DNA of 64,000 nucleotides, taken from an uncultured Gemmatimonadales bacterium. GTDB taxonomy: Bacteria > Gemmatimonadota > Gemmatimonadetes > Gemmatimonadales > Gemmatimonadaceae. Made by a program: the position numbers and the translations under genes. Shown in pieces: positions 7,538 through 63,820 of this stretch. Location: positions 128,001 to 192,000 of the forward strand of contig CAWKNZ010000003.1 in the NCBI GenBank assembly GCA_963851265.1, read 5' to 3'. Below the pieces are notes generated by a model. That model saw only the letters and a program-made list of their open reading frames with translations. It did no database searches and was not told where the DNA came from. Each line of letters begins with the position of its first letter. Positions within the stretch are counted from its first letter, which is position 1.

Positions 7538-8560
7538 ATGTCGCTCGCCTTCCCCGCCACGCGCCCCCTCACGGGCCGCCAGAAGCTCGCGGTCGTCTTC
7601 ATGGCGGTCGGCCCCGAAGTCACGGCCACGCTCGGCGCCGAACTCTCGCCCGACGAGATCGAGCAGATCAGCCTCGAGATCGCGCAGACCGAGCGCGTGC
7701 CCGCGGAGGTGACCGAGCAGGTGCTCGCGGAGTGGCTCGAGGCCACGTTAGGCGTCGCCTCGCTGTCGATGGGCGGCATGGAGTTCGCGCGCGAGGTGCT
7801 CGAGCGCGCGTACGGGCGCGCGAAGGCCGAGCAGATGCTCAAGCGCATCCAGAATCAGCTCACCGACACGGTCGGGATGCCGCGGCTACGCAAGCTCGAC
7901 CCGCAGCAGCTCGCGACGACCCTGCGCGGCGAGCACCCGCAGACGGCGGCGCTCGTGCTGTCGCACCTCGAGCCGTCGCACACGGCGGCGATCGTGCGCG
8001 AGTTGCCCGCGGTGTTCGGCGGCGACGTGCTCTACCGCATGGCGAAGATGGAGAAGGTCGCGCCCGAGATGCTGCAGCTGGTCGAGCGGGCGCTGTCGAG
8101 CGACGCGGACCTCACGTTCACGACGGGGATGGCGGCCGCGGGCGGCCCGGCGGCGGTGGCGAGCGTGCTCAACCTCGTCTCCGGCGCGCTCGAGAAGGAG
8201 TTCATCGAGGGGTTCTCGGAGCGCGACGCGACGCTCGCCGAGCAGATCAAGAATCTCATGTTCGTCTTCGAGGACCTCGTCGGGCTCGACGACAAGTCGC
8301 TCCAGCGACTGCTGCGCGAGGTCGACGCGAAGCAGCTCGCGCTGGCGCTCAAGGCCGCCAGCGACGACCTCAAGGCGAAGATCCTCGGCTCGATGTCGCA
8401 GCGCGCGGTCGCCGCGCTCAAGGAGGAGATGGAGTTCATGGGCCCGGTCAAGATGCGCGACGTCGAGACGGCACAGACGACGATCGTCACCCAGGTCCGC
8501 AAGCTCGAAGAGTCCGGCGAGATCGTGCTGAGCGCCGGCGGCGACGACGTGCTCGTCTGA
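7538..8560 (+). CDS. fliG: Flagellar motor switch protein FliG
   Basis: LTGRQKLA, EHPQ, MFVFEDL, MGPVKMRDVE. Confidence 0.96.
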   Translation: MSLAFPATRPLTGRQKLAVVFMAVGPEVTATLGAELSPDEIEQISLEIAQTERVPAEVTEQVLAEWLEATLGVASLSMGGMEFAREVLERAYGRAKAEQMLKRIQNQLTDTVGMPRLRKLDPQQLATTLRGEHPQTAALVLSHLEPSHTAAIVRELPAVFGGDVLYRMAKMEKVAPEMLQLVERALSSDADLTFTTGMAAAGGPAAVASVLNLVSGALEKEFIEGFSERDATLAEQIKNLMFVFEDLVGLDDKSLQRLLREVDAKQLALALKAASDDLKAKILGSMSQRAVAALKEEMEFMGPVKMRDVETAQTTIVTQVRKLEESGEIVLSAGGDDVLV

Positions 8561-8583
8561 CGGGCTCCCCGCACCGCCTCCCC

Positions 8584-9462
8584 ATGTCGCACAGTCGTCC
8601 GTTCCGCGCGCCCGACGCGTCGCCCTGGCTCCCCGACGCGTGGTTCGCGCCCGAGTTGCCCGACGCCGGCGGGACAGGTGCCGGCGCCGCGCGCGAGCGC
8701 GCACCGGAGCCCTTCGGCGGGTTCGTCGCCGGGTGGGCGGCGGAAGCGGCTGCAGGTGCGGCTGCGGATGCGCGCGTGTCGCCGTCGACTCACGCCCTCG
8801 ACGCCCTGTTGCCCGAGTTCGGGACCGGGTTGGGTCGCGGTGTCGGGCGCCACGGCGACCACGCGCTCGACGCGCTCGCTGCCGAGGCGGCCGACGCGCG
8901 CGAGGCCGAGGTCCGTGCCGAGCTCGCCGAACTGTATGCCGCCGAACTCGCCGCGCGCGACGCCGCACACGGCGAGACGCTCGAACAGGCCTGGGCGGAC
9001 GGACACGCGGCGGGGCACGCGGCCGGCGAAGCGCAGGCACACGCGATGTTCGCCGAGGCGGCCGGCGCGCTCGACGCCGCCGTGCGCGACGTCCAGCACC
9101 ACGAGGAGCGCTGGCTGGGCGATCTGCGCGCGCACGTCGCCGCACTCGCCGTCGCGGTTGCGCAGCACGTGGTCGGGCGCGAGGTCGCGGCCGACGACGC
9201 ACTCGTCGTCGCGCTCGTCGCGCGAGCGGTGGCGGAATTCCCCGCGCAGGAGGCGCTCGTCGCCCGCGTGCACCCCGCCGACCTCGACGCGCTGAAGGCG
9301 GCGTGGGCCGGCGCGGCGCGCGAAGGCGAGGTGCGCTGGACGCCCGACGCGCGCGTCGCGCGCGGCGGCGCCCTCATCGAAGGGCGCGAGCGCATCGTCG
9401 ACGGGCGCGTGGACGCGGCGCTCGAACGGCTGTACCGCGCGCTCGGGGGGCACGCGGCGTGA
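8584..9462 (+). CDS. fliH: Flagellar assembly protein FliH
   Basis: AxxxGxxxGxxxG repeats, ARVHPADL, DARVARGGALIE; between fliG and fliI. Confidence 0.88.
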   Translation: MSHSRPFRAPDASPWLPDAWFAPELPDAGGTGAGAARERAPEPFGGFVAGWAAEAAAGAAADARVSPSTHALDALLPEFGTGLGRGVGRHGDHALDALAAEAADAREAEVRAELAELYAAELAARDAAHGETLEQAWADGHAAGHAAGEAQAHAMFAEAAGALDAAVRDVQHHEERWLGDLRAHVAALAVAVAQHVVGREVAADDALVVALVARAVAEFPAQEALVARVHPADLDALKAAWAGAAREGEVRWTPDARVARGGALIEGRERIVDGRVDAALERLYRALGGHAA

Positions 9463-10844
9463 ACGGCCGCGTCACGCCGGCCGTCGGCATGCCGTGGGTG
9501 AACACGCCCGGCGACGCCGCCGGCATCATGCGCGCGCTGGCCGTGGTCCCGCGCCTCGCCACGTACGGCAAGGTGACGCGCGTCGTGGGCCTCGTCATCG
9601 AGGCGGCCGGGTTGGACGTCGGGCTCGGCGAGTTGTGCCGCATCACGTCGCTCACCGGTGATCGCTCGGTGCTGGCCGAGGTGGTAGGGTTTCACCAGGG
9701 CGGCGTGCTCCTCATGCCGCTCGGCGAGATGGACGGGCTGCATCCGGGGAGTGCGGTGCGCGCGCTGGGCCGGTCGTTCGGCGTCGACGTCGGCGCGGGC
9801 CTGCTCGGCCGCGTGCTCAACGGACTCGGCCACCCCATCGACGGCCTCGGGAAGCTCGACGTCAACGAGCGCGTCCCGCTCTCCGCCGAGCCGCCCAACC
9901 CGCTCGCGCGCGAGATGGTCGGCGAGGTGCTCGAGACCGGCGTGCGCGCCATCGACGGGTGCCTCACGTTCGGTAGAGGGCAACGCGTCGGGATCTTCGC
10001 CGGCTCGGGGGTGGGCAAGAGCACGCTCCTCGGGATGATCGCGCGCCAGGCGCGCGCCGACGTGAACGTGATCGCGCTACTCGGCGAGCGCGGGCGCGAG
10101 GTGCGCGAGTTCATCGAGCACTCGTTAGGCCCCGAAGGGCTCGCCCGCTCGGTGCTCGTCGTGGCGACCGGCGATCAGGCGGCGCTCGTGCGCGCCCGCG
10201 GCGCGCTCGTCGCGACGGCGATCGCGGAATACTTCCGCGACCAGGGCAAGCAGGTGCTGCTGATGGTCGACTCGGTGACGCGCGTCGCGATGGCGTGGCG
10301 CGAGATCGGCCTCGCCGTCGGCGAGCCGCCGACGACCAAGGGGTACCCGCCGAGCGTGTTCGCCGCGTTGCCGCGGCTGCTCGAACGCGCCGGCAACGGC
10401 GAGCGCGGAGGGATCACGGGCATCTACACCGTGCTCGTCGACGGCGACGACTTCAACGAGCCCGTGGCCGACGCGGCGCGCTCGATCCTCGACGGGCACG
10501 TCGTGCTCACGCGCAAGCTCGCGGCGGCCGGGCACTTCCCGGCGATCGACGTGCTCGACTCCAAGAGCCGCGTGCGCGACCAGATCATCCCGCCCGACCA
10601 GCGCACCGCGGCCAACATGCTGCTGAAGATCGAAGCGGCCTACCGGGAGAAGGAGGATCTGATCCTCGTCGGCGCGTACCAGAAGGGCAGCGACCCGCTG
10701 GTCGACGCCGCGGTCGCGCTCCGCGAGCAGGCGCTCGGCTTCTTCCAGCAGCGACCCGACGAGAGCTCGCCGCTGACGACGACGCGCGCCGCGCTCCGGC
10801 ACCTCAACGTGCAGATCGATGGGTCGACGCGTCGCGCCGCATGA
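9459..10844 (+). CDS. fliI: Flagellar export ATPase FliI
   Basis: GQRVGIFAGSGVGKS, GERGREV, DSVTR, GEPPTTKGYPPS; GTG overlaps fliH stop. Confidence 0.96.
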   Translation: MNGRVTPAVGMPWVNTPGDAAGIMRALAVVPRLATYGKVTRVVGLVIEAAGLDVGLGELCRITSLTGDRSVLAEVVGFHQGGVLLMPLGEMDGLHPGSAVRALGRSFGVDVGAGLLGRVLNGLGHPIDGLGKLDVNERVPLSAEPPNPLAREMVGEVLETGVRAIDGCLTFGRGQRVGIFAGSGVGKSTLLGMIARQARADVNVIALLGERGREVREFIEHSLGPEGLARSVLVVATGDQAALVRARGALVATAIAEYFRDQGKQVLLMVDSVTRVAMAWREIGLAVGEPPTTKGYPPSVFAALPRLLERAGNGERGGITGIYTVLVDGDDFNEPVADAARSILDGHVVLTRKLAAAGHFPAIDVLDSKSRVRDQIIPPDQRTAANMLLKIEAAYREKEDLILVGAYQKGSDPLVDAAVALREQALGFFQQRPDESSPLTTTRAALRHLNVQIDGSTRRAA

Positions 10845-11398: not shown

Positions 11399-12108
11399 AT
11401 GCTCCGCCTCATCATGCCCCTCCTCGTCGGGTTCCTGACCGGCCTGAGCGGAGCCACGATCGCCGTCGTGCAGCGTGCCAAGCACGCCGTCGCGCCGTTA
11501 GGCACGGCGCCGGCGGCCGTCGGCGCCGCGGGCCGCTCGGGCGCGACGCCGGCCGCGGCGTCCGCGACCGCGGGAGTCGCCCCCACGCCAACCGCCGCCG
11601 GCGAAGCCGTCGGCGCGCACGGCGAGGCCCCGGTCGCGGCGGAAGTCGCCGACGCACCGCCGGCCGCGAACGCGCCCGCGGCGGATCCACACGCCGCGGC
11701 CGCGCACCCCGCCGAGACCCGCCCGGCCGACGCGCACGTCGCCGCGACGGCGGCGGCGCTGCGCGCCCGGGCAGGGCGCGCGGCGCGCGCGGCACACGAG
11801 GCGCCGGCGCACCCGGGAACCGACGCCCCGACCAAGGCCCCAGCGCCGGCCGCGTCGACGGGCGAGTCGGCGCGGCCCGCCAGCGACCCCGCATCCGGGC
11901 CGCCCGAGCGGCGGCTCGCGAAGTATTTCGGCGCGATGCCGCCGAAGGACGCCGCGAAGATCCTGGAGCAGATGGACGATCGTGACATCCAGACGATCCT
12001 CGGCTACGTCGGCGACCGCCAGGCCGCTGCGATCCTCGGCAACCTCTCGGCGCCGCGCGCGGCGGCGGTCGGGCGCGCAACGCTGCGCACACCGGTCAAA
12101 GGCCGTTG

Positions 12109-12109: not shown

Positions 12110-14332
<2,223 letters not shown>

Positions 14333-14405: not shown

Positions 14406-14771
14406 ATGCAGCTCCGCCCTCTCAGCGCGGCCGTCGGCTCGGTCGCGACGCCGCCCAGCGCGCCCGCCGCCCCGACCACGCCCAAGGTCACCACGCCCAC
14501 CAGCTCGAGCCCCGGTGGCGCGATGGGGAAAGATCAGTTCCTCCAGCTGCTGGTCGCGCAGATGAAGAACCAGGATCCGGAAAGCCCGATGGACGGCACG
14601 CAGATGGCCGCCCAACTCGCGCAGTTCTCGACCGTCGAGCAGCTGCAGAACGCGAACGACACGCTGACGCAGATCGCGAGCGCGGTCCGCGTTGCGAACG
14701 GCACCACGAGCACGTCCTCCACCGGCGGCTCCACGTCGACCGGCGACACCACGCCGACGACCAGCGCCTAA
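14406..14771 (+). CDS. flgD: Flagellar hook capping protein FlgD (N-terminal domain only)
   Basis: MGKDQFLQLLVAQMKNQDPESPMDGTQMAAQLAQFSTVEQL. Confidence 0.93.
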   Translation: MQLRPLSAAVGSVATPPSAPAAPTTPKVTTPTSSSPGGAMGKDQFLQLLVAQMKNQDPESPMDGTQMAAQLAQFSTVEQLQNANDTLTQIASAVRVANGTTSTSSTGGSTSTGDTTPTTSA

Positions 14772-14893
14772 CACTTCCCGCGCGGCCCGCCGCGCGCGTC
14801 CGGCCGCCCGCCGGGCCGGTCATCCGTCGCGCGCCCAGACGCCCACGCGGGGCGCCCGCGCGCGACGCCACACCCTCCGCCTCACCCCGCCCG

Positions 14894-16459
14894 ATGCTGC
14901 GCTCCCTCTTCGACGGCGTTTCCGGTTTGCGCGCTCAGCAGACCCGTCTTGATGTTATCGGCAACAACATCGCCAACGTTAACACCGTCGCTTTCAAGGC
15001 CGGCCGCGTCACCTTCAAGGAAGGCTTCGCGCAGTTGCTCCAGGGCGCGAGCCGCCCGCCGGGCGACGAGGGCGGGACGGACCCGATCCAGATCGGCCTC
15101 GGGACCCAGATCGGGTCGATCGACCAGCAGTTCACGCAGGGCAACCTCGAGACGACGGGCAACGCCACCGACCTCGCGATCCAGGGGAACTCGCTGTTCG
15201 TCGTCCGGAAGGGCGCGCAGAGCTCCTACACCCGGGCGGGCAACTTCCAGCTCGATGCGACCGGCAAGCTCGTGTCCCCGACGAACGGGTTCGTCGTGCA
15301 GGGCGAGATGTACCAGAACGGCGTGCCGCAGAACAACGGCATCCACGACATCCAGATCCCCTTCGGGCAGAAGATCGCGGCGAAGGCCACCACCAGCGCC
15401 ACGCTCGGCGGCAACCTCGACGCGTCCGCGGCGCAGGTCCCGGCCGGGTTCGACATCGCGAGCGCGACCGACCGGGCGGCGAACCCGACCTCCTACACCG
15501 AGACGTCGCTCACCACCTACGACTCGCTCGGCAACCAGCACAACGTCAAGATCCAGACGTACAAGACCGGGCCGAACGAGTGGGCGTGGCGCCTGGATCC
15601 GACGTCGCCGACGGTGAGCGTCCCGACGACGATCGGCGCGGCCGACTCGAACGGCGCGCACCACTTCTCGATCCCGGCAGTGCCGGCCGGCGAGACCGTG
15701 ACGATGGCCGGCCTAACGACTTCGAGCGGCCAGGCGGTCGACCCGTCCGCGATCAGCTACGACGCGACCACGAACGACTACGTGATCGCGGCGAGCGTGA
15801 ACCTGAACGGGAACCAGTCGGCGACGGCCACGTATTCGATCATGCCGACCGCGCCGGCGGACGCGAGCGGCAAGCCGAGCACCGACCCGTCGACGTACAA
15901 GGGGATCAACGGCGGCGTGTTCTCGTTCGACACGCAGGGGAACCTCGACCCGACGAAGTCGGACATGCCGGTCCTCAAGTTCTCGATCCCGGGCGCGGAC
16001 GACGTCAGCGTGAAGCTGAACCTCGGCGGCGGGGCGTCGGGGCTGACGCAGTTCGCGACGGCCTCGACGGCCGTGCTCCGCGACCAGAACGGCTTCACCG
16101 GCGGCACCTTGCAGAACTTCTCGATCGACCGCTTCGGCGGCATCAACGGCGCCTATTCGAACGGCACGACGGAGCCGATCGGCCGGATCGTGCTCGCCGA
16201 CTTCAACAACGAGGCCGGCCTGCTGCGCACGGGCGACAACATGTACCAGGAGTCGGCGAACTCCGGCGGTCCGGTCCTCGGCTACGCGGGCGAAGGCAGC
16301 CAGTCGGAGGTCACGGCCGGCGCGACGGAGATGTCGAACGTCGACCTCGCGCAGGAGTTCACGAACATGATCGTCGCGCAGCGCGCCTTCCAGGCCAACG
16401 GCAAGGTCATCACGACGAGTGACCAGATGCTGCAGGAGCTGATGCAGGTGAAGCAGTAA
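14894..16459 (+). CDS. flgE: Flagellar hook protein FlgE
   Basis: GVSGL..IGNNIANVNT, DLAIQG, YTRAGNF, YDSLG, EMSNVDLAQEFTNMIVAQRAFQAN. Confidence 0.96.
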   Translation: MLRSLFDGVSGLRAQQTRLDVIGNNIANVNTVAFKAGRVTFKEGFAQLLQGASRPPGDEGGTDPIQIGLGTQIGSIDQQFTQGNLETTGNATDLAIQGNSLFVVRKGAQSSYTRAGNFQLDATGKLVSPTNGFVVQGEMYQNGVPQNNGIHDIQIPFGQKIAAKATTSATLGGNLDASAAQVPAGFDIASATDRAANPTSYTETSLTTYDSLGNQHNVKIQTYKTGPNEWAWRLDPTSPTVSVPTTIGAADSNGAHHFSIPAVPAGETVTMAGLTTSSGQAVDPSAISYDATTNDYVIAASVNLNGNQSATATYSIMPTAPADASGKPSTDPSTYKGINGGVFSFDTQGNLDPTKSDMPVLKFSIPGADDVSVKLNLGGGASGLTQFATASTAVLRDQNGFTGGTLQNFSIDRFGGINGAYSNGTTEPIGRIVLADFNNEAGLLRTGDNMYQESANSGGPVLGYAGEGSQSEVTAGATEMSNVDLAQEFTNMIVAQRAFQANGKVITTSDQMLQELMQVKQ

Positions 16460-18347: not shown

Positions 18348-18746
18348 ATGAACCCCGCAGAGATCGACGCGCTCGTCGCGAGCGTGCAGGCCGCGAAGGC
18401 CAGCGGCCAGCCGGTCGCCCCACCGGCCCCGCCCCCCCCGGCCAGCTACGACCCGGACTTCGGCACCACGCCAGCGTCCGGCGGCAGCGAGATCCCGTTA
18501 GGCATGATCTTCGACCTCTCGCTGCCCGTCTCGATCGAGCTCGGGCGGACGTCGATGACCGTGCAGGAAATCCTGCGTCTCGGGCGCGGGTCGGTGATTC
18601 AGCTCGACCGCCTCGCGGGCGAGCCGATCGACATCTACGTCGGCGAGCGCAAGTTCGCCGAGGGCGAAGTGGTGGTGCTCGGCGAGCACTTCGGCGTGCG
18701 GATCGTGCGGATCTTCGCCGGGGCGACGTCGGCGCTCGCGGCGTGA
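18348..18746 (+). CDS. fliN: Flagellar motor switch protein FliN
   Basis: VSIELGRT..GSVIQLDRLAGEPIDIYV..AEGEVVV..FGVRI. Confidence 0.94.
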   Translation: MNPAEIDALVASVQAAKASGQPVAPPAPPPPASYDPDFGTTPASGGSEIPLGMIFDLSLPVSIELGRTSMTVQEILRLGRGSVIQLDRLAGEPIDIYVGERKFAEGEVVVLGEHFGVRIVRIFAGATSALAA

Positions 18747-27716: not shown

Positions 27717-28073
27717 CGCACGGGCGTGCTCGCGCGCGACGCGCGTTCCGTTCGCGCGGCCGCCGCGTGCGCGAGGACGACGCGGGACCGGGCCCGCGCG
27801 CTGCCCTAGGCGCCGCGCGGCACCTCGCCTAACGCTTCGGCGGTCGCGCCGTCGTCGCGCCCGCGGTTCGGCGCGACCGCGAGGGCACGGCGGCGACGCA
27901 CGCCCTCACCGACGCCGCGGCCCGCGTGCGGCGCCGCGCGGGGAGGCTCGGCACCACCGCCGATTTTGCGCGGCCGCCCGTCGGTCGTCCTGTGACCGAT
28001 CTCACTGTGGCACCTCGCCACCGTCGCGCGCGCGCCGTAGCCGCGCCGCGACATCGCCCCCCGCCCGCCCGCC

Positions 28074-41701: not shown

Positions 41702-41704
41702 CCC

Positions 41705-42984: not shown

Positions 42985-43340
42985 GTGGTCACCCCGCGAG
43001 GTCGGTGCGGGACGTACGGCGGGCGGTCGATCGGCGGGCGGGCATCGGGCGGCTCGGGTGCGTGGTGTTAGGCGGTGGACGGCGGGGCGGCTCGCGCCAC
43101 GCCGCCGGCGGGACGGCCTCACACAAGGCAGCGGTCGGGCCGCCCGGCGCGGCGCGCCGGCGCGGCGGGCATTCACGCCGTAAGTACATCGCCAGCAACG
43201 CTTTACGTTGCCGAAGCATAGAACGGCTCGCCGATGCGGGCGCGCGCCGAAGCCCGACCTGTTGCGGCGCTGCTACGCTTCTCGCAACACCGACGCTACT
43301 GGCGTCCTACGACACCCGCGGCGGGCGGAGGCGTCGGGCG

Positions 43341-51311: not shown

Positions 51312-53158
51312 GCGGCGGCGGGCCAGACGGCGCCGCCGCGTCGCCGATCCGCGCGGTCGCGTACCTCACGGCCGTGTCGCTGAAGAACCGGGTGCTCGTG
51401 CAACTGCGTCGCCTGCGCTCGCCCCGGGCGCTGGTCGCGGCGGCCGCGGGCGCGGCGTACATGTGGTATTTCCTGTTCCGGCAGGACGCGCGTTCGGCGG
51501 CCGGCTCGCTGCTGACCGGGGCGTCGTGGCCGTTGCGGGTCGCGGCGCTGGTCGCGTTAGGCTTCCCCGCGTTCTGGTGGCTCGCGCGCGGGGGCAAGGA
51601 GGCGTCGGGCGCGCTCGCGTTCACGCCGGCGGAAGAGTACCTCTTGTTCGCCGCGCCGGTGTCGCGTCGCGGACTCGTCCACTGGAAGCTGTGGCGGGCG
51701 CAGCTCGCCGTGCTGTTCAACACCGTGCTGTTCACGGTGCTGTTGCGCGGGGGCGCCGGGCACGCGGGGGCCTGGGCGCGCGCGCTCTCGCTGTGGCTGG
51801 TGTTCTCGACCCTGCAGCTGCACCGGCTCGCCGCGGCGCTCGTCACGGGGCCGGCCGACGGGCGGGGTGCGGCGGGTGGACGCGGGACGGCCGAGCGCGG
51901 CGGGCGCTCGGTCGTGGCGCGGTGGGCGCCGGCGGCGGTTCTCGCCGCGTTGGTCGGGGCCGTGGCGGTCACGCTCGCGCCGCGGGCGGGCGCGCTCGCG
52001 GCGGCGTGGGACGCCGGGTTCGGCGCGTTCGGAACGATGCTCGGCGCGGCGCTCGACCAGACGCCGGCGCGGTGGGCGCTCTGGCCCACGCGCGCGCTGC
52101 TCGCGCCGCTGTTCGCGCTCGGGGCCCAGGCCGCGTCGTATCAGGGCGTCGGCGGCGCGTTCGGCGACGTCACGGCACGACAGCGCTGGGCGGCGACGCT
52201 GCTCCCGGCGGTGCTCCTCGTCGCGGCGCATTACTTCTGGGTGATCCGCATCGACGCGCGCCTCACGGAGCTCGCCCTCGACGCGGGCGAGGCCAAGCGC
52301 CGCGCGCGCGCGAAGGCCCGCACGCGGGCGCCGGGCGCGGGGGCGCGACGGACGCTGCGGCTGGCGCCCGTCGGTCCACCCGCGGTCGCCCTGGTGTGGA
52401 AGAACTGGCTCGCGTTCACGCGGGCGACGGCGCTGGTGCGCGTGCTCACGCTCCTCGGGGTCGCTGCCGCCGGGACGCTCGCCGCGACGATGCGCAGTCC
52501 GCGGTTCGCGGAGCTGGCCACCGTCGTCGCGGCGACGTGGGGGGCGCTCCTCGTCGCCGCGGGACCGCTCTGGGTGCGCTACGACATCCGCCACGATCTA
52601 CCGCACCTGCCGTTCCTCAAGGCTGTGCCGATCGCTGGGCGGACGCTCGTCGCCGCGGAGATCACCGCGTCGGTGCTGGCCCTGACCGGAGTGCAGCTTG
52701 CGGCGCTCGCCTTTCTCCTGATCGCGGCGGCCGGCGCGCGGGACGAGTTCGGACTCCGGCCGGCGGAGCGCGCCGTGTATGCGCTCGCGCTCGCCATTGC
52801 GTTGCCGGGGTTGAACGCGGCGACGCTCACCGTCCAGAACGGGATCGCCCTGCTCTTCCCGGCCTGGGTGCGCCAGCCGGGGGGGAGCGCGCGCGGGATC
52901 GAGGCGACCGGACAGAACCTCGTCGGAACCGCACTCACACTCGCCGCGTCGGCCGTGCTGCTGGCGATCCCCGCGGGACTCGCCCTCGCCCTCGTGTGGG
53001 CGCTTCGACGCTCGGCCGCCGCCGCGCTCGGCCCGTGGCTCGCGGTGCCGGCCGCCGCGCTCTTCACACTCGGCGCGGCCGGCGTGTTGTGGCCCGTGGT
53101 CGGCTGGCTCGGCCGGGTGTTCGATCGCACCGATCCGATCGAGACGACGCCCGCGTGA
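51308..53158 (+). CDS. Putative ABC exporter membrane protein
   Basis: Many TM segments; FTPAEEYLLFAAPVSRR; start overlaps ATPase stop. Confidence 0.82.
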   Translation: MSGGGPDGAAASPIRAVAYLTAVSLKNRVLVQLRRLRSPRALVAAAAGAAYMWYFLFRQDARSAAGSLLTGASWPLRVAALVALGFPAFWWLARGGKEASGALAFTPAEEYLLFAAPVSRRGLVHWKLWRAQLAVLFNTVLFTVLLRGGAGHAGAWARALSLWLVFSTLQLHRLAAALVTGPADGRGAAGGRGTAERGGRSVVARWAPAAVLAALVGAVAVTLAPRAGALAAAWDAGFGAFGTMLGAALDQTPARWALWPTRALLAPLFALGAQAASYQGVGGAFGDVTARQRWAATLLPAVLLVAAHYFWVIRIDARLTELALDAGEAKRRARAKARTRAPGAGARRTLRLAPVGPPAVALVWKNWLAFTRATALVRVLTLLGVAAAGTLAATMRSPRFAELATVVAATWGALLVAAGPLWVRYDIRHDLPHLPFLKAVPIAGRTLVAAEITASVLALTGVQLAALAFLLIAAAGARDEFGLRPAERAVYALALAIALPGLNAATLTVQNGIALLFPAWVRQPGGSARGIEATGQNLVGTALTLAASAVLLAIPAGLALALVWALRRSAAAALGPWLAVPAAALFTLGAAGVLWPVVGWLGRVFDRTDPIETTPA

Positions 53159-53728: not shown

Positions 53729-55471
53729 GTGGCGTATCGCACTCTCGAGGCATCACCGAACGCTCCCGACCCGGCGCTGCTGTACCGCGCCCTGCTCGAC
53801 TCGCACCCGGAGCCGACGTTCACGCTCGACCGTTCGGGCGCGATCCGGGAGTGCAACCGCGCGTTCGCGCATTTCGTCGGGCGACCGAGTCGTGCCCTCG
53901 TCGGGGAGTCGTTCGCCTCGCTCGTGCTGCCCGGGCACCGGCCCGCGGCGGAACAGGCGTGGGCGGTCGCGTCGATGGGGCGGGCGCAGTCCTGGCAGGC
54001 GGAGTTCGTCGGTCCGGACGACACGGTGAGCATCGCGTACGTCACGCTCGTACCGGTGGTCGTGGACGCGGACGTGGTGGGGCTGCAGGGGATCGCGCGC
54101 GACGTCACCGTCTATCAGGTGATCGAGGAGCAGCTGCAGGCGCGCGTCTTCACCGACCCGCTCACCGGACTGGCGAGCCGCACGCAGCTGTTGGAGGGCG
54201 CGGCGCGCGCGTGCCGGCGGGCCGAGCGGCCGCAGTCGGTGGCGATGCTCTTTCTGGACCTCGACGACTTCAAGCTCGTGAACGACGCGCTCGGGCACGC
54301 GATCGGCGACCAGGTGCTGGCCGCGGTGGGGGCGCGGCTTCGGCGCGCGACACGCGGCGCCGACCTGCCGGCGCGGCTCGGCGGCGACGAGTTCGCGGTG
54401 CTGCTCGATGCGCTCGCGACGCCCGAGGACGCGGCGGTGGTCGTGGAGCGGATCTCCGCGGCGCTGTGTGAGCCGCTCGTCGTGGACGGGCGGTCGATCA
54501 CGACGGTGGCGAGCATCGGGGTGGCGCACTGGGACGGCGCGGCCACGCCTGCGGAGTTGCTGCGGAACGCGGACCTCGCCATGTACCGGGCGAAGTCGTT
54601 AGGCAAGGGGCGGCACGCCGTGTACGACGCGGGCATGCAGGCCGCCGCGCGCGCGCGCCTCGAGCTGGCGAGCGATCTGCGCGCCGCGCTGCGCGGCGAC
54701 GCGGACGGCGGGATGCTGCACGCGGCCTACCAGCCGATCGTGGACGCGGCGAGCGGAGTGCCGGTGAAGGCCGAGGCGCTCGCGCGCTGGACGCACCCGA
54801 CGCGCGGCCCGGTGTCGCCGGGCGAGTTCATCCCGGTGGCGGAGGAGACGGGGCTGATCGAGGAATTGGGCGCGTTCATGCTGCGCGCGGGGTGCCGACA
54901 GTTGCGCGCGTGGGCGGACGCGGCATGCGAGTCGGGCGCCGCGCCGATCGGGGTGACGGTGAACGTGTCGGGGCGGCAGATCGAGCGCGGGACGCTCGTC
55001 GCGACGGTGCGCGAGGTGCTCGCGCAGACCGGCGCCGACCCGGACGGGCTGACGCTCGAACTCACCGAGAGCGTGGCGATGCGCGACCCGCAGCGCGTCC
55101 TCGCGACGCTGACCGCGCTCACGTCGTTGGGCGTGAAGCTCGCGATCGACGATTTCGGCACGGGGTACTCTTCGCTGTCGTACCTGCAGCGGTTTCCGCT
55201 CGACGCGCTGAAGATCGACAAGAGCTTCGTCGACGGGCTCGCGCTCGATGGCGCGGCGGGGGTGCAGGCGGCGGGGCTGGTGCGGGCGGTGGTGCAGATG
55301 GCCGCGGCGCTCGGGCTGCAGACGGTCGCGGAGGGCGTGGAGACCGCGGCGCAGTTCGAGGCGGTGCGCGCACTCGGCTGCGACCTCGCGCAGGGCTACC
55401 ACTTCGGCCGGCCGGGGACGGCCGCGGCGGTGGACGCGCTGGCGGACGCGGCGCCCGCGGCACGCGCCTAA
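53729..55471 (+). CDS. PAS-GGDEF-EAL diguanylate cyclase/phosphodiesterase
   Basis: PAS; DPLTGL, DLDDFK, RGAD I-site, GGDEF; EALARW, DDFGTGYSS, KIDKSF, AEGVE, QGY. Confidence 0.95.
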   Translation: MAYRTLEASPNAPDPALLYRALLDSHPEPTFTLDRSGAIRECNRAFAHFVGRPSRALVGESFASLVLPGHRPAAEQAWAVASMGRAQSWQAEFVGPDDTVSIAYVTLVPVVVDADVVGLQGIARDVTVYQVIEEQLQARVFTDPLTGLASRTQLLEGAARACRRAERPQSVAMLFLDLDDFKLVNDALGHAIGDQVLAAVGARLRRATRGADLPARLGGDEFAVLLDALATPEDAAVVVERISAALCEPLVVDGRSITTVASIGVAHWDGAATPAELLRNADLAMYRAKSLGKGRHAVYDAGMQAAARARLELASDLRAALRGDADGGMLHAAYQPIVDAASGVPVKAEALARWTHPTRGPVSPGEFIPVAEETGLIEELGAFMLRAGCRQLRAWADAACESGAAPIGVTVNVSGRQIERGTLVATVREVLAQTGADPDGLTLELTESVAMRDPQRVLATLTALTSLGVKLAIDDFGTGYSSLSYLQRFPLDALKIDKSFVDGLALDGAAGVQAAGLVRAVVQMAAALGLQTVAEGVETAAQFEAVRALGCDLAQGYHFGRPGTAAAVDALADAAPAARA

Positions 55472-55569
55472 CCGTACCGCCGTCTGCGGACGGTCGCGCC
55501 GAACGCGCGAGCGGGCGGCGCTCGGTGCGCCGCCCGCTCGTCATTCGGAACGCGGGGTGTACGCCGCGA

Positions 55570-56726: not shown

Positions 56727-56740
56727 GCGTCGCCGGTGCG

Positions 56741-56977
56741 TTAGGCGGCGAGCTGGGTGCCGTGGGCCGGGCGCCAGCCGCGCGAGCGGCGGCCGGTCTT
56801 GATGAGTTCGAAGCGTGCCGGCGGGAAGCCGTGGACTCCGATCTCCAGCGTGTCGCCGAGATGGGCCTCGGCCTGCTCGGCGATCGCGTCGAGCGCCTCG
56901 CGGAACGAATCGCTGGTCACCGCGCCGGCTTCGCGCACGGTGCCTTCGTTGGCGAGGGAGAACTGGAAGCGGGGCAT
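56741..56977 (-). CDS. Small hypothetical protein
   Basis: MPRFQFSLANEG..LEIGVHGFPPARF; AGGAG Shine-Dalgarno. Confidence 0.7.
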   Translation of the reverse strand: MPRFQFSLANEGTVREAGAVTSDSFREALDAIAEQAEAHLGDTLEIGVHGFPPARFELIKTGRRSRGWRPAHGTQLAA

Positions 56978-58138: not shown

Positions 58139-59046
58139 CGACGCCGGTGACGCCGTCGGCGACCGCGCCGGCCGCGGCGCCGGGCGAGGTGCCGGGCGAG
58201 GTGCCCGCCGTCCCCGTGGTGACGGCGCGGCGCTACGTGCAGCCGCTGCGCGAGGGCGGGTCGCTGCCGGCGGTGGTCGAGGGCGACGACGGCGGGCTCT
58301 GGGTGGCGAAATTCCGTGGTGCCGGGCAGGGCGCGCGGGTGCTCATCGCGGAGCTCGTCGTCGGGCTGCTGGCGCAGGCGTTAGGCCTGCCGGTGCCGGC
58401 GCTCGCCGTGGTCGACGTGCCCGCCGAGTTCGGGCGCATCGAGCGCGACCCGGAGATCCAGGACCTGCTGCGGAAGAGCGAGGGGGTGAACGTCGGGCTG
58501 CGGTACCTCGACGGCGCGTTCAACTTCGATCCGCTCGCGGCGGGCTCGCTCATCGAGCCCGCGTTCGCGGCGCGGGTGGTGTGGCTGGACGCGTACACGA
58601 CCAACCCGGACCGGTCGGCGCGCAACCCGAACCTGATGGTGTGGGACCGGCGCCCGTGGCTGATCGATCACGGGGCGGCGCTCTACGTGCAGCACGACTG
58701 GCGCGGGGTGGACGCGTCGCGCGCGCTCGCGCCGTTCCCGCTCGTGCGGCAGCACGTGCTGCTGGCGGCGAGCGCGGACCTGCGCGCGGCGGACGCGGCG
58801 CTGGCGCCGCTCGTGACGGACGCGCTGTTGCACGCCGTGCTGGGGCGCGTGCCGGACGCGCTGTTCGCCGACCCGTCGGGGCCGGTGGGCGCGGGGGAGT
58901 TCGCGGACGCGGGCGCGGCGCGGGCGCGCTACGCGGCGTATCTGGGCGACCGCGTGCGCGGACGCGCGGCGTGGCTCGACGCGGCCGTCGCGGCGCGCGA
59001 GGCCGTGCGGGCGGCGCCGCCGGAACGGCTTCGGGCGAGGCGGTGA
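58135..59046 (+). CDS. HipA-like kinase
   Basis: PLREGGSLP..VAKFRGAGQG, NPDRSARNPN, LIDHG. Confidence 0.85.
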   Translation: MTTPVTPSATAPAAAPGEVPGEVPAVPVVTARRYVQPLREGGSLPAVVEGDDGGLWVAKFRGAGQGARVLIAELVVGLLAQALGLPVPALAVVDVPAEFGRIERDPEIQDLLRKSEGVNVGLRYLDGAFNFDPLAAGSLIEPAFAARVVWLDAYTTNPDRSARNPNLMVWDRRPWLIDHGAALYVQHDWRGVDASRALAPFPLVRQHVLLAASADLRAADAALAPLVTDALLHAVLGRVPDALFADPSGPVGAGEFADAGAARARYAAYLGDRVRGRAAWLDAAVAAREAVRAAPPERLRARR

Positions 59047-59504
59047 GCGGCGGGGCTGGCGACGCGGGCCCGCTGGTCGCGTACGACTACGCGGTGCTGC
59101 GGGCGGTGCCGCACCCGCAGCTCGGGGGTGCGGTGCGGTCGGTGCCGGTGGGCGTCGTGGTGCACGCGCGGACCGCGGGGTTTCTCGAGCTCGCCGTCGT
59201 GGACGACGAGCGGTGGCTGGCCGCGCAGATGCCGAGCGTGGACGCGGGGCTGCTCGCGCGGTACCTGCGGGCGTGCCGGGCGGTGTGCCGCGGCGAGGCG
59301 GTGGGCGAGGGGGGGTGGGTGCACGCGGTGGCGCTGGCGCCGCCGTCGGAGCGGTTCCACTGGATCACGGCGCCGCGGTCGGACGTGGTGCAGTGCGGGG
59401 CGGTGCACGGGGGGATGGCGCGGGCGTTAGGCCACGAGTTGAGGCGGTTGTTCGAGGGGTACGTCGAAGGGGGTGGCGGACCGGGGCCGCACGCGGGTCC
59501 GTGA
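59043..59504 (+). CDS. DUF3037-like protein
   Basis: YDYAVLRAVP..VGVVV..ERFHWITAPRS..VHGG; coupled to the kinase. Confidence 0.82.
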   Translation: MSGGAGDAGPLVAYDYAVLRAVPHPQLGGAVRSVPVGVVVHARTAGFLELAVVDDERWLAAQMPSVDAGLLARYLRACRAVCRGEAVGEGGWVHAVALAPPSERFHWITAPRSDVVQCGAVHGGMARALGHELRRLFEGYVEGGGGPGPHAGP

Positions 59505-61727: not shown

Positions 61728-61756
61728 CGTCCGAAAGATGCGCGGCGCCACGCGGA

Positions 61757-63820
61757 TCACGTCGCCGGTCCGACCGTAACCCGCCAGGTGGTCTGGTCCT
61801 CGACGCCCCACAGGTACTTGTAGCGTTCGCCCCCGCGGAGGAAGTCGAGCGTACGGCAGCCTTCGGCGATGGCCGCCTCGACGGTCGCACGGACGATCGC
61901 CACGCCGGGGCTGTAGTACTCGAACGCGGGGTCGAGCCCGCTCAGGTAGCAGTACGCGCGGCCGTGGTGCACGAGACCGTAGAGCACGGCCGCGGGGCTG
62001 CCGTCGATGCGCAGCACGCGGAGCCGGAGCCAGCCGCGCGCGAGGAAGCCCGCCGCGGCCTCCGCGTGGAATTCGGCGAGCCGGTCGTCGGCGAGCACGC
62101 CGGCCTCGCCGCGCGAGCGCCAGCGCGCCTCGTGGAGGGCGAAGAGCGCGTCGAGGGCGGCGGGGAGGGTGCGGGCGTCGGCGGTCACGAGCTCGACGTG
62201 CTGGGCGCGGCGCAGTCGGTTGGCGCCGAGGTTGAGCTTGCGGCGGAACGTGCCGCCCAACGTCGCGGCGAAGGCGTCCCACCCGCCCTCCCAGGCGCCG
62301 GGGAGCGGGCGCGCGGGGGCGACGCTCTGCACGGCGCGCGCGGCGGTGAGCCCGGCCGGCCATTCGGCTTCGAGCAGCGCGCCAGGGAGGGGCGACTCGT
62401 CGCGGAGTTCGTCGAAGGCGGCGGCGGTCCACGCGCCGTCCGCGGCCTCGCCCGCGAGGTGGCGCACGGCGGCGCGGAGGGCGCCCTGCCCCGCCGCCGG
62501 ATCGGCGAGCGCGTCGCCGTAGTCGGTGACGCCGGCGCCCAACAGGGCGAACGTTCGCGCACCGCCGCGCGGCGCGTCGGCGAAGGTGAAGCCGGGGAGG
62601 AGGGCGGCGAGCGCGCCGGTCGAGGCGTCGCGCACGGCGATGGTGCGCAGGCCGCCCTCCCCCCCGGACGCGCCGGCCCCGGACGGGTCGGCGGCCCGTG
62701 CGCCGGTCGCGCGTCCACCGCCGAGGTGGCGCCACCAGGCGAGCTGCCATTCGGGGCTCTGAAAGGGCGTGGCCCACGGACATCGATCGTGGAGCGCGCG
62801 CCACTCGGGAACGAGCCGGGCGAGCGCGTCGGCGCACGTGACCGACTCGGCGGCGAAGGCGGCCGCGCGGGGGGCGGCGCGGCGTTCGGCGCGGCGGCGC
62901 AGGTGGAAGACGGCGCCGTCCCAGTGGGCGAAGGGCTGCGCGCCGGCGACGACGAGGTCGAGTCCGTGCCGCGCCGCGAGCGCGGCCGCGTCGCGGCGGT
63001 CGGCGGCGAGGTCGCTCCGGTACGAGAAGTTGACGATCACGACGTCGCCGCCAGGGCGGGCGACGCGCGCCATCTCGGCCACGGTCGCGTCGACGAGTGC
63101 CGGTCCGCCGGCGAAGACGTACGGGAACGCGTCGACGGCGAGGACGAGGTCGAACGCCGCGTCGCGGAACATGGCGAGGTCGCGGCCGCCGGTGCGGACG
63201 AACGCGGCGGCCGCGCGCGCCGCGGCGGGGAGCGCGGCCGCGCGGCGGTGGGCCGCCGCGAGCATGCCGGGCGAGACGTCGACGCCGACGGCGAGCGACA
63301 CGCGCGGCGCGAGCGCCTGCTCGAAGCGGCCGATCCCGCAGCCGATCTCGAGGAGCGCGCCGCCACCCCGCGCGGCGCGCTCCGGCACGAGCCCTTCAGC
63401 GTCGAGCCAGGCGACGACCTCGCGGGTGGCGCGGGCGAGGAGGCCGGGGTCGCCTAACGAGTAGAGGGCGACGCTCGCCTCCTCGCTCGCCGCCACGGCG
63501 TCGTCGAAGAGGCGGCGGACCGCGTCGGGGTCGCCGGCCGTTGGTCCGCGCGCCATCGCGGCGACGCGGGCGGCGCCTTCGGTGAGCGCGGGCATGAGCC
63601 CGGCGAGCGCGTCGAGGCGCGCGCGCTGCTCGGCGTCGGGCGCGCCGGCGCGTCGGGCGCGCGCCACGGCAGCCGCGGCGACGGCCGGCCCGCCGTCGCC
63701 GAGCACGAGGAGCGAGACGGCGACCGGTGGCGGGATCTCGCCGCGCAGGCAGCGGGCGATGACGTCGTCGGCTGCCGTCTGGTCGGGCGAGGGCGGCGTG
63801 GTCGCGGGGGCGGGCGGCAT
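61757..63820 (-). CDS. Class I SAM methyltransferase fused to CelD/BcsL-like GNAT
   Basis: LEIGCGIG, GVDVSPGM, RVARPGG; then TPFQSPEW..WW, SPG, DFLRGGERYK. Confidence 0.82.
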   Translation of the reverse strand: MPPAPATTPPSPDQTAADDVIARCLRGEIPPPVAVSLLVLGDGGPAVAAAAVARARRAGAPDAEQRARLDALAGLMPALTEGAARVAAMARGPTAGDPDAVRRLFDDAVAASEEASVALYSLGDPGLLARATREVVAWLDAEGLVPERAARGGGALLEIGCGIGRFEQALAPRVSLAVGVDVSPGMLAAAHRRAAALPAAARAAAAFVRTGGRDLAMFRDAAFDLVLAVDAFPYVFAGGPALVDATVAEMARVARPGGDVVIVNFSYRSDLAADRRDAAALAARHGLDLVVAGAQPFAHWDGAVFHLRRRAERRAAPRAAAFAAESVTCADALARLVPEWRALHDRCPWATPFQSPEWQLAWWRHLGGGRATGARAADPSGAGASGGEGGLRTIAVRDASTGALAALLPGFTFADAPRGGARTFALLGAGVTDYGDALADPAAGQGALRAAVRHLAGEAADGAWTAAAFDELRDESPLPGALLEAEWPAGLTAARAVQSVAPARPLPGAWEGGWDAFAATLGGTFRRKLNLGANRLRRAQHVELVTADARTLPAALDALFALHEARWRSRGEAGVLADDRLAEFHAEAAAGFLARGWLRLRVLRIDGSPAAVLYGLVHHGRAYCYLSGLDPAFEYYSPGVAIVRATVEAAIAEGCRTLDFLRGGERYKYLWGVEDQTTWRVTVGPAT

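Follow-up and report, generated by a model that had tools for sequence, protein, structure and literature searches.

Introduction

The DNA uptake sequence (DUS) of the Neisseriaceae is read by the minor pilin ComP. HIP1, a hyper-abundant 8-mer that cyanobacteria carry in their genes against the codon habit and that is patchy among relatives, is palindromic and linked to a cognate methyltransferase. Chi (RecBCD or AddAB) and KOPS (FtsK) are over-represented, non-palindromic 5-8-mers read by DNA-processing machines. In PMC1939737, DUS and the USS of the Pasteurellaceae are described as short non-palindromic words, common to related species, that occur in hundreds to thousands of copies in either orientation, without orientation bias or replication skew. 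Some of the copies fall in reading frames, where coding permits them, and non-coding DNA has more of them than expected. The same paper argues that clustering is not favoured, since each fragment is bound through one uptake sequence. For the USS, a 2025 preprint predicts a minor pilin, ComN.

The first-pass annotation of a stretch of 64,000 nucleotides (the window) from an uncultured soil bacterium of the Gemmatimonadaceae (Gemmatimonadales) drew attention to the word GTTAGGC and stated that no such signal was known for the lineage. Our literature searches agree, and yielded nothing relevant on DNA uptake, transformation or competence in the phylum. Here we describe the word in the window, in the 4.6-Mb genome to which the window belongs (G000, 12 contigs), and in 41 relatives, 13 of them word-rich and 28 others. 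Its pattern is closest to that of DNA uptake sequences.

Results

All 28 positions given for GTTAGGC in the window proved to be exact matches on the strands named, 18 on the plus and 10 on the minus strand. Dinucleotide-preserving shuffles of the window predict 1.79 copies (SD 1.39, maximum 7), and none of 100 shuffles reached 28 or more. The preceding base is C in 22 copies, T in 4 and G in 2; 26 copies are YGTTAGGC, as claimed.

Gene calls in the window and the genome were crude and GC3-based. In what follows, copies read CGTTAGGC unless marked TGTTAGGC or GGTTAGGC. In plus-strand genes, sense copies in the frame G-TTA-GGC (Leu-Gly) are found in FliG (7747..7753; gene 7538-8560), a FliI-type flagellar ATPase gene (10124..10130; 8640-10844), FliN (18497..18503; 18348-18746), a FliR-type export gene (TGTTAGGC, 22870..22876; 22232-23110), FlhB (23637..23643; 23122-24213), FlhA (25195..25201 and, 843 bp after it, 26038..26044; 24254-26341), a flagellar rod gene (TGTTAGGC, 32370..32376; 31876-32745), FlgA (33945..33951; 33565-34032) and a PAS-GGDEF-EAL gene (54598..54604; 53246-55471). 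A minus-strand AI-2E family transporter gene (47801-48997) has a minus-strand copy in the same frame at 48680..48686. Pfam support reassigns two plus-strand copies to sense Leu-Gly: 58380..58386, in ORF 57208-59046 (plus) with a HipA_2-like kinase domain, where the offset from the ORF start places the G at codon position 3 and hence gives G-TTA-GGC, and 59426..59432, in a DUF3037 ORF (58581-59504, plus), again by offset from the ORF start. The minus-strand copy at 63452..63458 is likewise placed in sense G-TTA-GGC in a minus-strand methyltransferase/GNAT gene (61757-63997), not on the stop codon of the unsupported plus-strand ORF 61556-63457.

Antisense copies on the minus strand face plus-strand genes, as GC-CTA-AC in a FliK-like gene (14004..14010; 12527-14332) and the hook gene FlgE (15711..15717; 14894-16459), and as G-CCT-AAC (Pro-Asn) in an ORF without Pfam match (28847..28853; 28074-28970) and an alpha-amylase family gene (30288..30294; 29959-31809). 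On the plus strand they face minus-strand calls: G-CCT-AAC in an MRJP/SGL-like gene (39599..39605; 38960-40081) and in a called gene without Pfam match (11497..11503; 10804-11988), which lies in coding-like DNA of uncertain gene strand, and GC-CTA-AC in an ORF without Pfam match and of uncertain coding status (TGTTAGGC, 43067..43073; 42556-43176). Two minus-strand GGTTAGGC copies overlap stop codons as GCC-TAA-C, those of MotA (41696..41702; 40367-41701, plus) and of the PAS-GGDEF-EAL gene (55466..55472).

Other copies lie between or outside supported genes. The TGTTAGGC copy at 14766..14772 (minus), between called genes and upstream of FlgE (14894, plus), is intergenic or at a gene edge. The copy at 27827..27833 (minus), between an AMP-binding enzyme gene (26421-27716, plus) and ORF 28074-28970, is probably intergenic, since it is covered by a doubtful 82-aa ORF only. 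The plus-strand copy at 46168..46174 has an uncertain setting in a stretch with a 49-aa call only, 51556..51562 (plus) lies outside called genes downstream of an ABC ATPase gene (50481-51311, plus), and 56740..56746 (plus) is intergenic, between ORF 55903-56679 and a metallo-beta-lactamase-fold gene (57095-58138), both plus. The earlier breakdown (16 sense, 6 antisense, 4 stop, 2 intergenic) is confirmed only approximately: the calls give 14 sense, 8 antisense, 2 stop-overlapping and 4 intergenic copies. The accompanying claim that no in-frame TTA occurs outside the word nearly holds in the window (13 of 14, the exception at 31918) and fails genome-wide, where 818 of 1,187 in-frame TTA codons (69%) lie within G-TTA-GGC.

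The genome contains 1,762 copies, 885 on the plus and 877 on the minus strand, at 0.38 per kb overall and 0.33-0.55 per kb on each of the 12 contigs. Markov models of order 1-3 predict 96-160, and under orders 2 and 3 GTTAGGC is the most over-represented 7-mer. The enrichment also far exceeds a null in which synonymous codons were permuted within each gene, keeping the protein and the gene's own codon usage: called genes contain 859 sense copies versus 38.8 +- 5.7 expected (22-fold) and 317 antisense copies versus 40.1 +- 6.3 (8-fold; 60 shuffles). Single-letter variants are at background level, and no one-letter neighbour is specially depleted. Among the 16 variants of GTTRRRY, GTTAGGC alone is strongly enriched (11-fold; the others 0.09-3.0). 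Genome-wide, C precedes the word in 79% of copies and T follows in 5%. Flank preference is weak beyond 7-8 bp.

Across three frames, 9-22% of the places where the word could be written synonymously do carry it: 818/6,679 for xxG-Leu-Gly, 250/1,197 for xxG-Pro-Asn, 67/774 for xGC-Leu-Thr and 98/439 for Ala-stop-C. The word overlaps about 150 stop codons genome-wide; TAA is the stop in 98 of 204 cases after GCC and before C, versus 23 of 205 after GCG. About two thirds of the copies are within genes, the sense ones in ordinary genes, flagellar and housekeeping, and distributed over their length. The density is highest between genes (0.55 per kb outside gene calls versus 0.35 inside). The word is reached by more than one mutational route (TTG or CTC to TTA, CCC or CCG to CCT, TGA to TAA). 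It is enriched whether it lies sense, antisense, on a stop codon or between genes, which, together with the background level of the variants and the differing routes, bears out the first-pass proposal that the DNA word itself is the target, rather than protein or codon, be it of selection or of biased transmission. The higher the GC3 of a gene, the denser the words (0.19-0.21 rising to 0.58 per kb), and third-position A/T drops locally near words; both trends are compatible with a recombination-linked process.

No replication-related orientation skew was found, with replichores assigned by proxies. Intergenic copies split 46:38 in regions with strong gene-strand bias, and on contig C1 the presumed leading strand has 35 of the 81 copies that lie to the right of dnaA. 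Among the analogies offered earlier, this favours the DUS/HIP1-like class over Chi/KOPS; as to a methyltransferase site, no C5 methyltransferase or Vsr was found in the word-rich genomes G000, G001, G297 and G304. The copies avoid each other: 78 neighbour gaps are shorter than 300 bp versus 193 +- 12 expected, and pair density within 300 bp, whether the pairs are direct or inverted, is 0.31-0.47 of the expected value. Terminator-type inverted pairs closer than 50 bp are not enriched (6 versus about 16 expected). At larger scale the gaps have a coefficient of variation of 1.07, with deserts of up to 45 kb.

Two congeners retain the word at orthologous positions to a greater extent than they do other 7-mers. 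Sites of G000 are identical in G004 in 23 of 45 cases (against 34% of all aligned 7-mers) and in G001 in 30 of 53 (against 32%); matched control words are identical in 14-47%. Where sites differ, the alignment is ungapped and the difference lies in substitutions at the corresponding position, giving states such as GTTGGGC, GCTCGGC, GCTGGGC and GCTAGGC. Abundance of the word is limited to some genera of one order, and G293 is almost without copies though congeneric with three rich genomes. In 100 kb from each of four word-poor genomes no alternative 'dialect' word was found. On contig C3 the density is 0.41 per kb in DNA aligning to both congeners and 0.39 in DNA aligning to neither.

G000 encodes ComEC (C2:1509256-1510986) and, at C5:26-35 kb, a PilQ-like secretin with a pilMNOP-type cluster and pilin genes. 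ComEC and the secretin, each detected in 40 of 41 relatives, explain nothing of the patchiness, because word-poor relatives have them too. None of eight candidates scored in G000 matched the ComP_DUS family, which passes the cut-off in a single relative of 41 (the word-poor G014). In 21 genomes the 16 kb upstream of pilQ revealed no gene peculiar to the word-rich ones, 5 of 9 rich loci being cut by contig ends. No reader of the word was found among the candidates: a ComP-type pilin, RecC, an AddB-like gene, the integron integrase, C5-methylase/Vsr and an extra FtsK do not track it.

Discussion

Enrichment, range of settings, lack of skew, self-avoidance, conservation and patchy spread point to a DNA-level signal that is read as a whole word. 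As the likeliest reading, we tentatively suggest, with clearly less than even confidence, that YGTTAGGC may work like the uptake sequences of the Neisseriaceae and Pasteurellaceae. It shares with these, as described in PMC1939737, a short asymmetric form, a high copy number, indifference to orientation and replication, lack of clustering, placement in genes where coding permits with over-representation between them, and occurrence in related species; its 300-bp self-avoidance fits the argument made there of one uptake sequence per fragment. It differs from DUS and USS in being merely 7-8 bp long with weak flanks, in its lower density in G000, and in having no ComP_DUS homologue found. The lack of dialects in 4/4 word-poor relatives sampled, unlike in Neisseriaceae, the lack of an excess of terminator-type pairs and the equal density in shared and unshared C3 DNA count against uptake.

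So does a coincidence that the uptake model does not predict. By its letters, GTTAGGC is the canonical integron attC/attI core, which the first-pass annotation missed. PMC12901181 gives the consensus GTTRRRY for R' and RYYYAAC for R''; the word fits the former and its complement the latter, and a chance match of the top 7-mer is unlikely (32/16,384 words). In cassette arrays of word-poor relatives (G027:C95, G025:C3, G379:C2), 41 of 47 GTTAGGC copies have RYYYAAC 65-135 bp upstream, C precedes 44/47 and T follows 2/47, flank preferences that the genome-wide copies share. The word might then be a duplex R-box bound by an integron-type tyrosine recombinase or a relative, and its copies either genome-wide attG-like docking or insertion sites for cassettes or by-products of binding; work cited in the same paper describes cassettes inserting at attG sites in genomes. 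Integrons are common in the order, with integrases over the family cut-off in 25 of 41 relatives, but the integrase does not track the word (8/13 word-rich, 17/28 others). It is missing or fragmentary in the rich genomes G001, G008, G012 and G018, and in G000 a serine-recombinase gene has inserted into the sole integron integrase gene and split it. In G000 the copies are single boxes with no L box, hairpin or partner R'' beside them (GCCTAAC...GTTAGGC pairs 50-150 bp apart number only 8), other GTTRRRY variants are not enriched, and most copies lie in conserved genes, independent of an intact integrase and where insertion would be harmful. We regard this explanation as unlikely.

Host-level selection for a chromosome-organising or other intracellular DNA-binding protein, with one site per few kilobases, is rather improbable. 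The fairly even spread over all 12 contigs, the conservation of orthologous sites, the indifference to orientation and the 300-bp exclusion zone, as if near sites interfered or were redundant, would suit it. The gaps, however, are unbounded, no candidate protein was identified, and the near-absence of the word from close relatives such as G293 would be odd for a core architectural role.

A Chi-like control site, which would tame a helicase-nuclease, stimulate recombination and mark the cell's own DNA, is likewise short, non-palindromic and over-represented, and the local rise in GC3 near words could reflect recombination. G000 has an AddAB-like pair (UvrD helicase and PD-(D/E)XK nuclease domains; C3:244.5-251.7 kb). 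The word nevertheless lacks the orientation skew of Chi and KOPS; RecC occurs in 1/41 relatives and was not found in G000, and an AddB-like N-terminal part, found in only 10/41, is present in the poor G006, G009, G014, G024, G032 and G035 and was not found in the rich G001, G004 and G012. FtsK is single in each of five genomes tested. We consider a Chi-like role very doubtful.

A methyltransferase-plus-repair pair that turns near-cognate words into GTTAGGC, in the style of HIP1 or very-short-patch repair, would require no host benefit, and its gain or loss as a mobile gene pair would fit the patchy spread. Several substitutions at differing positions lead to the word, as the orthologous states show, and the stop-codon contrast and undepleted neighbours also speak against such a bias. 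Unlike HIP1, the word is asymmetric, and the four rich genomes searched gave no C5 methyltransferase or Vsr; such a mutation or repair bias is most improbable. In Streptomyces, TTA is a rare regulatory codon with bldA, but a codon-level signal of this kind is scarcely credible here, despite the share of TTA codons inside the word and one tRNA-Leu(UAA) gene in G000, for it is contradicted by the likewise enriched copies, about 850 in number, that are antisense, on stop codons, in other frames or intergenic, and by the spread of sense copies along ordinary genes.

If GTTAGGC is an uptake sequence, the exact 7-8-bp word would be read by a sequence-specific protein held by only some lineages of the order. 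This putative receptor, on the DNA-uptake route, would bind word-bearing duplex DNA in either orientation, and fragments of the cell's own kind would be imported via the encoded ComEC/secretin machinery and then recombined. Mutations that create the word would be over-transmitted and those that destroy it under-transmitted, and a second copy near an existing one would bring little gain. Such drive, rather than host-level selection, may keep the sites, and over time biased transmission would write the word into every place that the protein code allows.

Exact spelling and abundance of the word

The first-pass annotation had listed 28 copies of the word GTTAGGC (reverse complement GCCTAAC) in the window. 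All 28 were exact, against 1.79 expected from dinucleotide-preserving shuffles, and none of 100 shuffles reached this number. The base before the word was C in 22 copies, T in four and G in two. The source genome (G000; 4.6 Mb in 12 contigs, 73% G+C), in which the window is C3:128001-192000, contains 1,762 copies. They divide 885:877 between the strands, and each contig carries 0.33-0.55 per kb.

Markov models of order 1, 2 and 3 predict 160, 96 and 127 genomic copies, respectively, and under orders 2 and 3 GTTAGGC ranks first among all 7-mers. These orders and a codon shuffle replaced a maximum-order Markov ranking, in which the word is hidden because its sub-words absorb the excess. In the shuffle synonymous codons were permuted within each gene, and the usage retained includes the TTA and CCT codons contributed by the word itself. 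Against this null, which preserves protein and codon usage, 859 sense and 317 antisense copies were seen where 38.8 ± 5.7 and 40.1 ± 6.3 were expected, so the enrichment claimed from the window holds genome-wide, and the refuting outcome named in the first-pass annotation, no excess over such a null, did not occur.

G precedes 1,762 of the 1,794 genomic TTAGGC, and single-letter variants of the word with the same A+T content have 8-118 copies each. Genome-wide, 1,396 copies are preceded by C and 243 by T; the following base is G in 953, A in 390, C in 336 and T in 83. Comparison of the 818 copies in the frame G-TTA-GGC with 3,102 frame-matched G-CTC-GGC controls revealed strong differences only at positions -1 (C 78% vs 44%), -3 (A/T 20% vs 6%), -4 and +7. 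The signal is therefore (W)nCGTTAGGCV and nothing longer; outside positions -4 to +7 the genomic copies showed no conservation.

Placement in genes, stop codons and spacers

Genes were called with a crude GC3-based caller (3,493 genes), and a few assignments in the window are uncertain. Called genes contain 1,319 copies in six settings, which we related to the openings, the synonymous sites able to hold the word. The commonest setting is the sense frame G-TTA-GGC (818 of 6,679 xxG-Leu-Gly openings, 12%), followed by antisense G-CCT-AAC with 245-250 copies (250 of 1,197 xxG-Pro-Asn openings, 21%). On stop codons the word is found as GCC-TAA-C in 96-98 copies (98 of 439 Ala-stop-C openings, 22%) and as GT-TAG-GC in about 54-64. 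GC-CTA-AC accounts for 66-67 copies (67 of 774 xGC-Leu-Thr openings, 9%), and GTT-AGG-C, which needs two rare codons, for 40-41 (41 of 3,396 Val-Arg-C openings, 1.2%). The substitutions that lead to these settings differ from one to the next, as do the positions that they change within the word, so the settings cannot all be due to a single hypermutable site. Of 204 genes with GCC before and C after the stop codon, 98 end in TAA, compared with 23 of 205 with GCG before it; among all 3,493 called genes TAG terminates 1,064 (30%) and TAA 381. Outside called genes lie 443 copies, 25% of the total in about 17% of the DNA. The signal sits on the DNA, not on the protein.

Pfam assignments identify an ordinary flagellar gene cluster over most of the window (FliE, FliF, FliG, FliI, FliK, FlgE, FliL, FliM, FliN, FliOP, FliR, FlhB, FlhA, a sigma factor, rod and ring genes, FlgK, CsrA and MotAB), followed by signalling and metabolic genes. 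In-frame TTA-GGC occurs within FliG, FliI, FliN, FliR, FlhB, FlhA (two copies), FlgA and others, antisense copies lie in FliK, FlgE and an amylase gene, and the word overlaps two stop codons, those of MotA and a GGDEF-EAL gene. Between FliE and FliF, within the cluster, lies an ORF that carries an HNH endonuclease domain (window positions 5042-5716, plus strand).

Conservation and spread among relatives

About 110 kb of contig C3 was aligned to each of two genomes of the same genus, G004 and G001, at 72-88% identity. In gap-free alignment 23 of 45 copies were identical in G004 and 30 of 53 in G001, above the background of all aligned 7-mers (34% and 32%, respectively); conservation of the sites across relatives, which the first-pass annotation had named as a check, is thus borne out in both congeners. 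The control words were identical in 47% (G004) and 29% (G001) for GCTCGGC, and in 14% and 24% for GTTGGGC. Where a word site differed, GTTGGGC and GCTCGGC were the commonest states, and the change was a substitution every time. Alignment in both congeners was obtained for 32 copies: 12 are common to all three genomes, 11 to two and 9 private to G000. Identity above background, together with the private copies, indicates that copies are maintained yet also turn over. Word density did not differ between core and accessory DNA of C3.

By FlhA, the closest named relatives (69% identity) are MAGs that bear the labels Gemmatimonadaceae and Gemmatimonadota. Richness was scored as the ratio of CGTTAGGC to its reversed control, and genomes scoring 2 or more were called rich. 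Thirteen of 41 relatives qualified: all five of the genus (9-34), G012, G040, G018, G023, G008, G038, G036 and G017. In G012 the ratio is 23, with 6,360 copies or 1.25 per kb. Most of the remaining relatives score 0.04-0.3, the word being rarer than its reversed control. In a 401-genome sample of the phylum, read off the table, a ratio of at least 2 was found in 13 of 95 genomes of family f1, in 3 of 166 of family f2, every one in genus g79, in none of the five sampled from family f3 and in none of 135 from nine other families. Genus g48 contains three rich genomes (G240, G297 and G401; 12-16) and one poor (G293; 0.35), and g79 is likewise mixed, with G173, G211 and G363 rich but not G152 and G172. 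The tallies include four unpublished genomes (G011, G085, G124, G203), all word-poor, and no claim is based solely on them.

In a small sample, 100 kb from each of the word-poor genomes G006, G021, G024 and G035, we found no rival hyper-abundant word, or dialect; the top word z was 5-11 in these genomes vs 19-24 in rich controls. Two of the segments, G035:C4:200001-300000 (loci L059-L063) and G024:C4:200001-300000 (L054-L058), each carry a different longer repeat containing A+T, with 8-19 copies per 100 kb. The enriched 7- and 8-mers overlap, which indicates an element of at least 11 letters.

Orientation, spacing and local composition

Replichores were assigned by proxy (gene-strand majority and the position of dnaA), GC skew being too weak and noisy, and the 12-contig assembly limits the orientation test. 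On replichores so inferred, the strand-skew check proposed in the first-pass annotation gave no replication-linked bias: besides the 885:877 split, intergenic copies in regions of strong gene-strand bias divide 46:38, and of the 81 copies in the 239 kb to the right of dnaA (C1:11460-12566) 35 lie on the presumed leading strand. By the sign of GC skew, itself weak, the split is 495:464. The sense fraction was 0.75 in co-oriented and 0.63 in counter-oriented genes (p = 0.11), and intergenic copies had no preferred orientation relative to the flanking genes. At about 36000-40000 of the window GC skew flips from negative to positive at a cumulative-skew minimum; dnaA is on another contig, and word orientation is unchanged across the switch.

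Copies avoid each other at short range. Gaps of less than 300 bp between neighbours number 78, compared with 193 ± 12 under random placement. Relative to expectation, the density of pairs is 0.31-0.47 at distances under 300 bp, 0.84-0.90 between 300 and 600 bp and about 1 at greater distances, the avoidance being similar for direct and inverted pairs. Word-free deserts reach 45 kb. The longest, C1:182876-227962, has zero copies and gene GC3 values of 0.79-0.97, many of them 0.84-0.90 (genome median 0.92), and may be a younger island.

Word density climbs with gene GC3 (word masked): genes of the lower half have 0.19-0.21 per kb, those of the top decile 0.58 per kb. The fill per opportunity increases as well, for Leu-Gly openings from 3.9% to 14.1% and for Pro-Asn openings from 10.4% to 22.8%. 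The A/T fraction of third codon positions is 0.056-0.058 up to 200 bp from a word, against about 0.082 at distances over 1 kb. In genes of at least 1,500 nt the ratio of third-position A/T to frame-matched controls was 0.64-0.70 beside sense copies (n = 456) and 0.87-1.0 beside antisense copies (n = 116). The local rise in GC3 may reflect GC-biased conversion linked to recombination; alternatively, the genome may be a kilobase-scale mosaic in which older native DNA carries both features. An asymmetry of the GC3 effect in word orientation was discarded as not robust, being confounded by a 5′-to-3′ gradient in the gene calls.

Comparison with uptake sequences and the search for a reader

There is good support for GTTAGGC being a whole-word DNA signal that is maintained by selection or by biased transmission, and we consider this very probable. 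The pattern is best matched by the published hallmarks of uptake sequences (PMC1939737; PMC3630211 and two 2025 preprints). By this analogy the mechanism may be DNA uptake sequence-like, an explanation that we favour tentatively.

Like the uptake sequences of Neisseriaceae (DUS) and Pasteurellaceae (USS), GTTAGGC is a single over-represented, short, non-palindromic word, occurs in both orientations without chromosome bias (on inferred replichores), and is found in tolerated frames within genes and in excess in non-coding DNA. Uptake machinery is encoded in G000 and shared by the word-poor genomes. Of 41 relatives, G000 included, 40 have ComEC. Matches to a PilQ-like secretin, none of which reaches the curated cut-off, were likewise obtained in 40 of 41, and there are also pilin and pilMNOP-like genes. 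Judged by gene content, the means of DNA uptake seem to be present, but ComEC and the secretin are near-universal and therefore uninformative on the difference between rich and poor genomes. In contrast to the known systems, neither a ComP-type receptor nor, in the four word-poor genomes sampled, dialects were found for GTTAGGC. A ComP-type minor pilin is the DUS receptor in Neisseriaceae; the ComP_DUS family (PF16732) had no match in G000, exceeded the cut-off in one word-poor genome among the 41 relatives, and showed no link to the word. A receptor, if there is one, may be a protein not homologous to ComP.

Among the pilQ loci examined, some of which end at contig edges in rich genomes, there was no rich-specific gene upstream of pilQ. 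In loci L074-L093 a family of 483 aa precedes a sigma-54-activator-like gene, upstream of the pilin genes. It was present in nine of ten word-poor and both intermediate genomes and in none of three complete rich loci of the same genus, the other rich pilQ loci being cut by contig ends. A lone type IV pilin directly downstream of polA (C1:169014-169481, L100) was rejected as a candidate reader, with full-length homologues in rich and poor genomes alike.

In the paper library searched there was nothing linking Gemmatimonadetes with 'DNA uptake sequence', no account of preferential uptake or transformation in the phylum and, judged by title and abstract, nothing relevant on Gemmatimonas and natural transformation; a full-text search with the bare word returned only primers and unrelated matches.

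Identity with the integron core

The integron consensus is R′ GTTRRRY and R′′ RYYYAAC with crossover after the first G, as given in PMC12901181, and PMC8618304 records integrons in Gemmatimonadota. GTTAGGC fits GTTRRRY exactly, and GCCTAAC fits RYYYAAC. The R′ boxes of 47 attC-type sites in three word-poor relatives have exactly this spelling: runs of CGTTAGGC in one orientation, spaced by about 550 bp, are integron cassette arrays. RYYYAAC lies 65-135 bp upstream of 41 of the 47 array copies, C precedes 44 and T follows two; from this pairing and these flanks, the word is the R′ core and its complement the R′′ core.

The exact core identity appears too specific to dismiss, and it speaks for GTTAGGC being an integron-linked site in the word-rich genomes as well. 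We nevertheless regard this as unlikely. Integron integrase did not correlate with word richness across the 41 relatives and was rejected as a reader for that reason, and the other 15 GTTRRRY variants are not enriched in G000. The paired inverse core, L box and acting integrase of attC/attI sites were not found for the genomic copies: the genome contains only eight neighbour pairs of GCCTAAC then GTTAGGC with attC-like spacing (50-150 bp), and no adjacent L box. The only integrase gene of G000 over the family cut-off is split (C6:2951-6044, L099). Its N-terminal part (about C6:5244-6044) and C-terminal end (C6:2951-3322) are on the minus strand, and they flank a plus-strand gene for a large serine recombinase (Resolvase, Recombinase and Zn-ribbon domains).

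In these pairs GTTAGGC follows GCCTAAC after 66-149 bp. Four of them fall within 15 kb at C10:188935-203785 and may mark a small cassette array or a cluster of attC sites without an integrase; word density is highest, and the coding fraction lowest, on this contig. The others are at C6:1591-1701, C6:34251-34317, C9:56164-56278 and C11:4065-4214.

We know of no system that links a DUS-like genome-wide word with an integron recombination core. If in these Gemmatimonadaceae the receptor of a DNA-import (or other DNA-transfer) route were tuned to the universal cassette core CGTTAGGC, the two would be joined, though we think this improbable. Each environmental gene cassette bears the word twice, so that cells with such a receptor would take in cassettes in preference to other DNA. 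A by-product would be the cassette core inscribed thousands of times in their own chromosomes by transmission bias.

Other explanations

Less likely than a link to integrons is that GTTAGGC is the binding site of another intracellular protein. An extra FtsK/TraB-like translocase was considered as reader and set aside, with one copy in each of five genomes.

A Chi-like site is a poor prospect. Chi occurs together with a RecBCD/AddAB-type enzyme and is skewed with replication direction; GTTAGGC showed no orientation skew (12-contig assembly, weak GC skew), and RecC, detected in one of the 41 relatives, does not track the word. AddB families failed to do so too: the N-terminal part of the AddB-like protein of G000 was found in 10 of 41 relatives (4 of 13 rich, 6 of 28 other), with no match in the rich G001, G004 and G012. 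The gene itself (C3:247993-251686, L094) adjoins an AddA-like helicase-nuclease gene and RmuC and consists of two adjacent ORFs in different frames (579 and 649 aa). In G023 the homologue is a single uninterrupted frame (1,360 aa), and the split may be a frameshift or an assembly error.

Slightly poorer still is the case for repair bias. Words of the HIP1 type are palindromic and have a cognate methyltransferase and a repair nuclease, whereas GTTAGGC is asymmetric; in a search covering C5 methyltransferases (PF00145) and Vsr (PF03852), neither family was found in G000, G001, G297 and G304. A single hypermutable site would be insufficient in any case. That the signal acts at the codon level is scarcely credible. 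In-frame TTA is very rare outside the word (1,187 of 114,306 leucine codons, 818 of them inside it), and a tRNA-Leu(UAA) gene is present in G000.

Significance

To our knowledge, only two families, both proteobacterial, are firmly known to have sequence-specific 'self tags' for DNA exchange. A third, from a soil phylum rich in uncultivated members and with a word spelled differently from the known tags, would widen the phenomenon. The word has been gained or lost between genera, and even within genus g48, which provides natural on/off contrasts for finding the reader. In practice GTTAGGC offers a strong marker by which word-rich genomes can be binned and foreign DNA in them recognised, and those who engineer word-rich bacteria should expect word-bearing DNA to behave differently. 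If the word is tied to integrons, it bears on how cassettes meet genomes.
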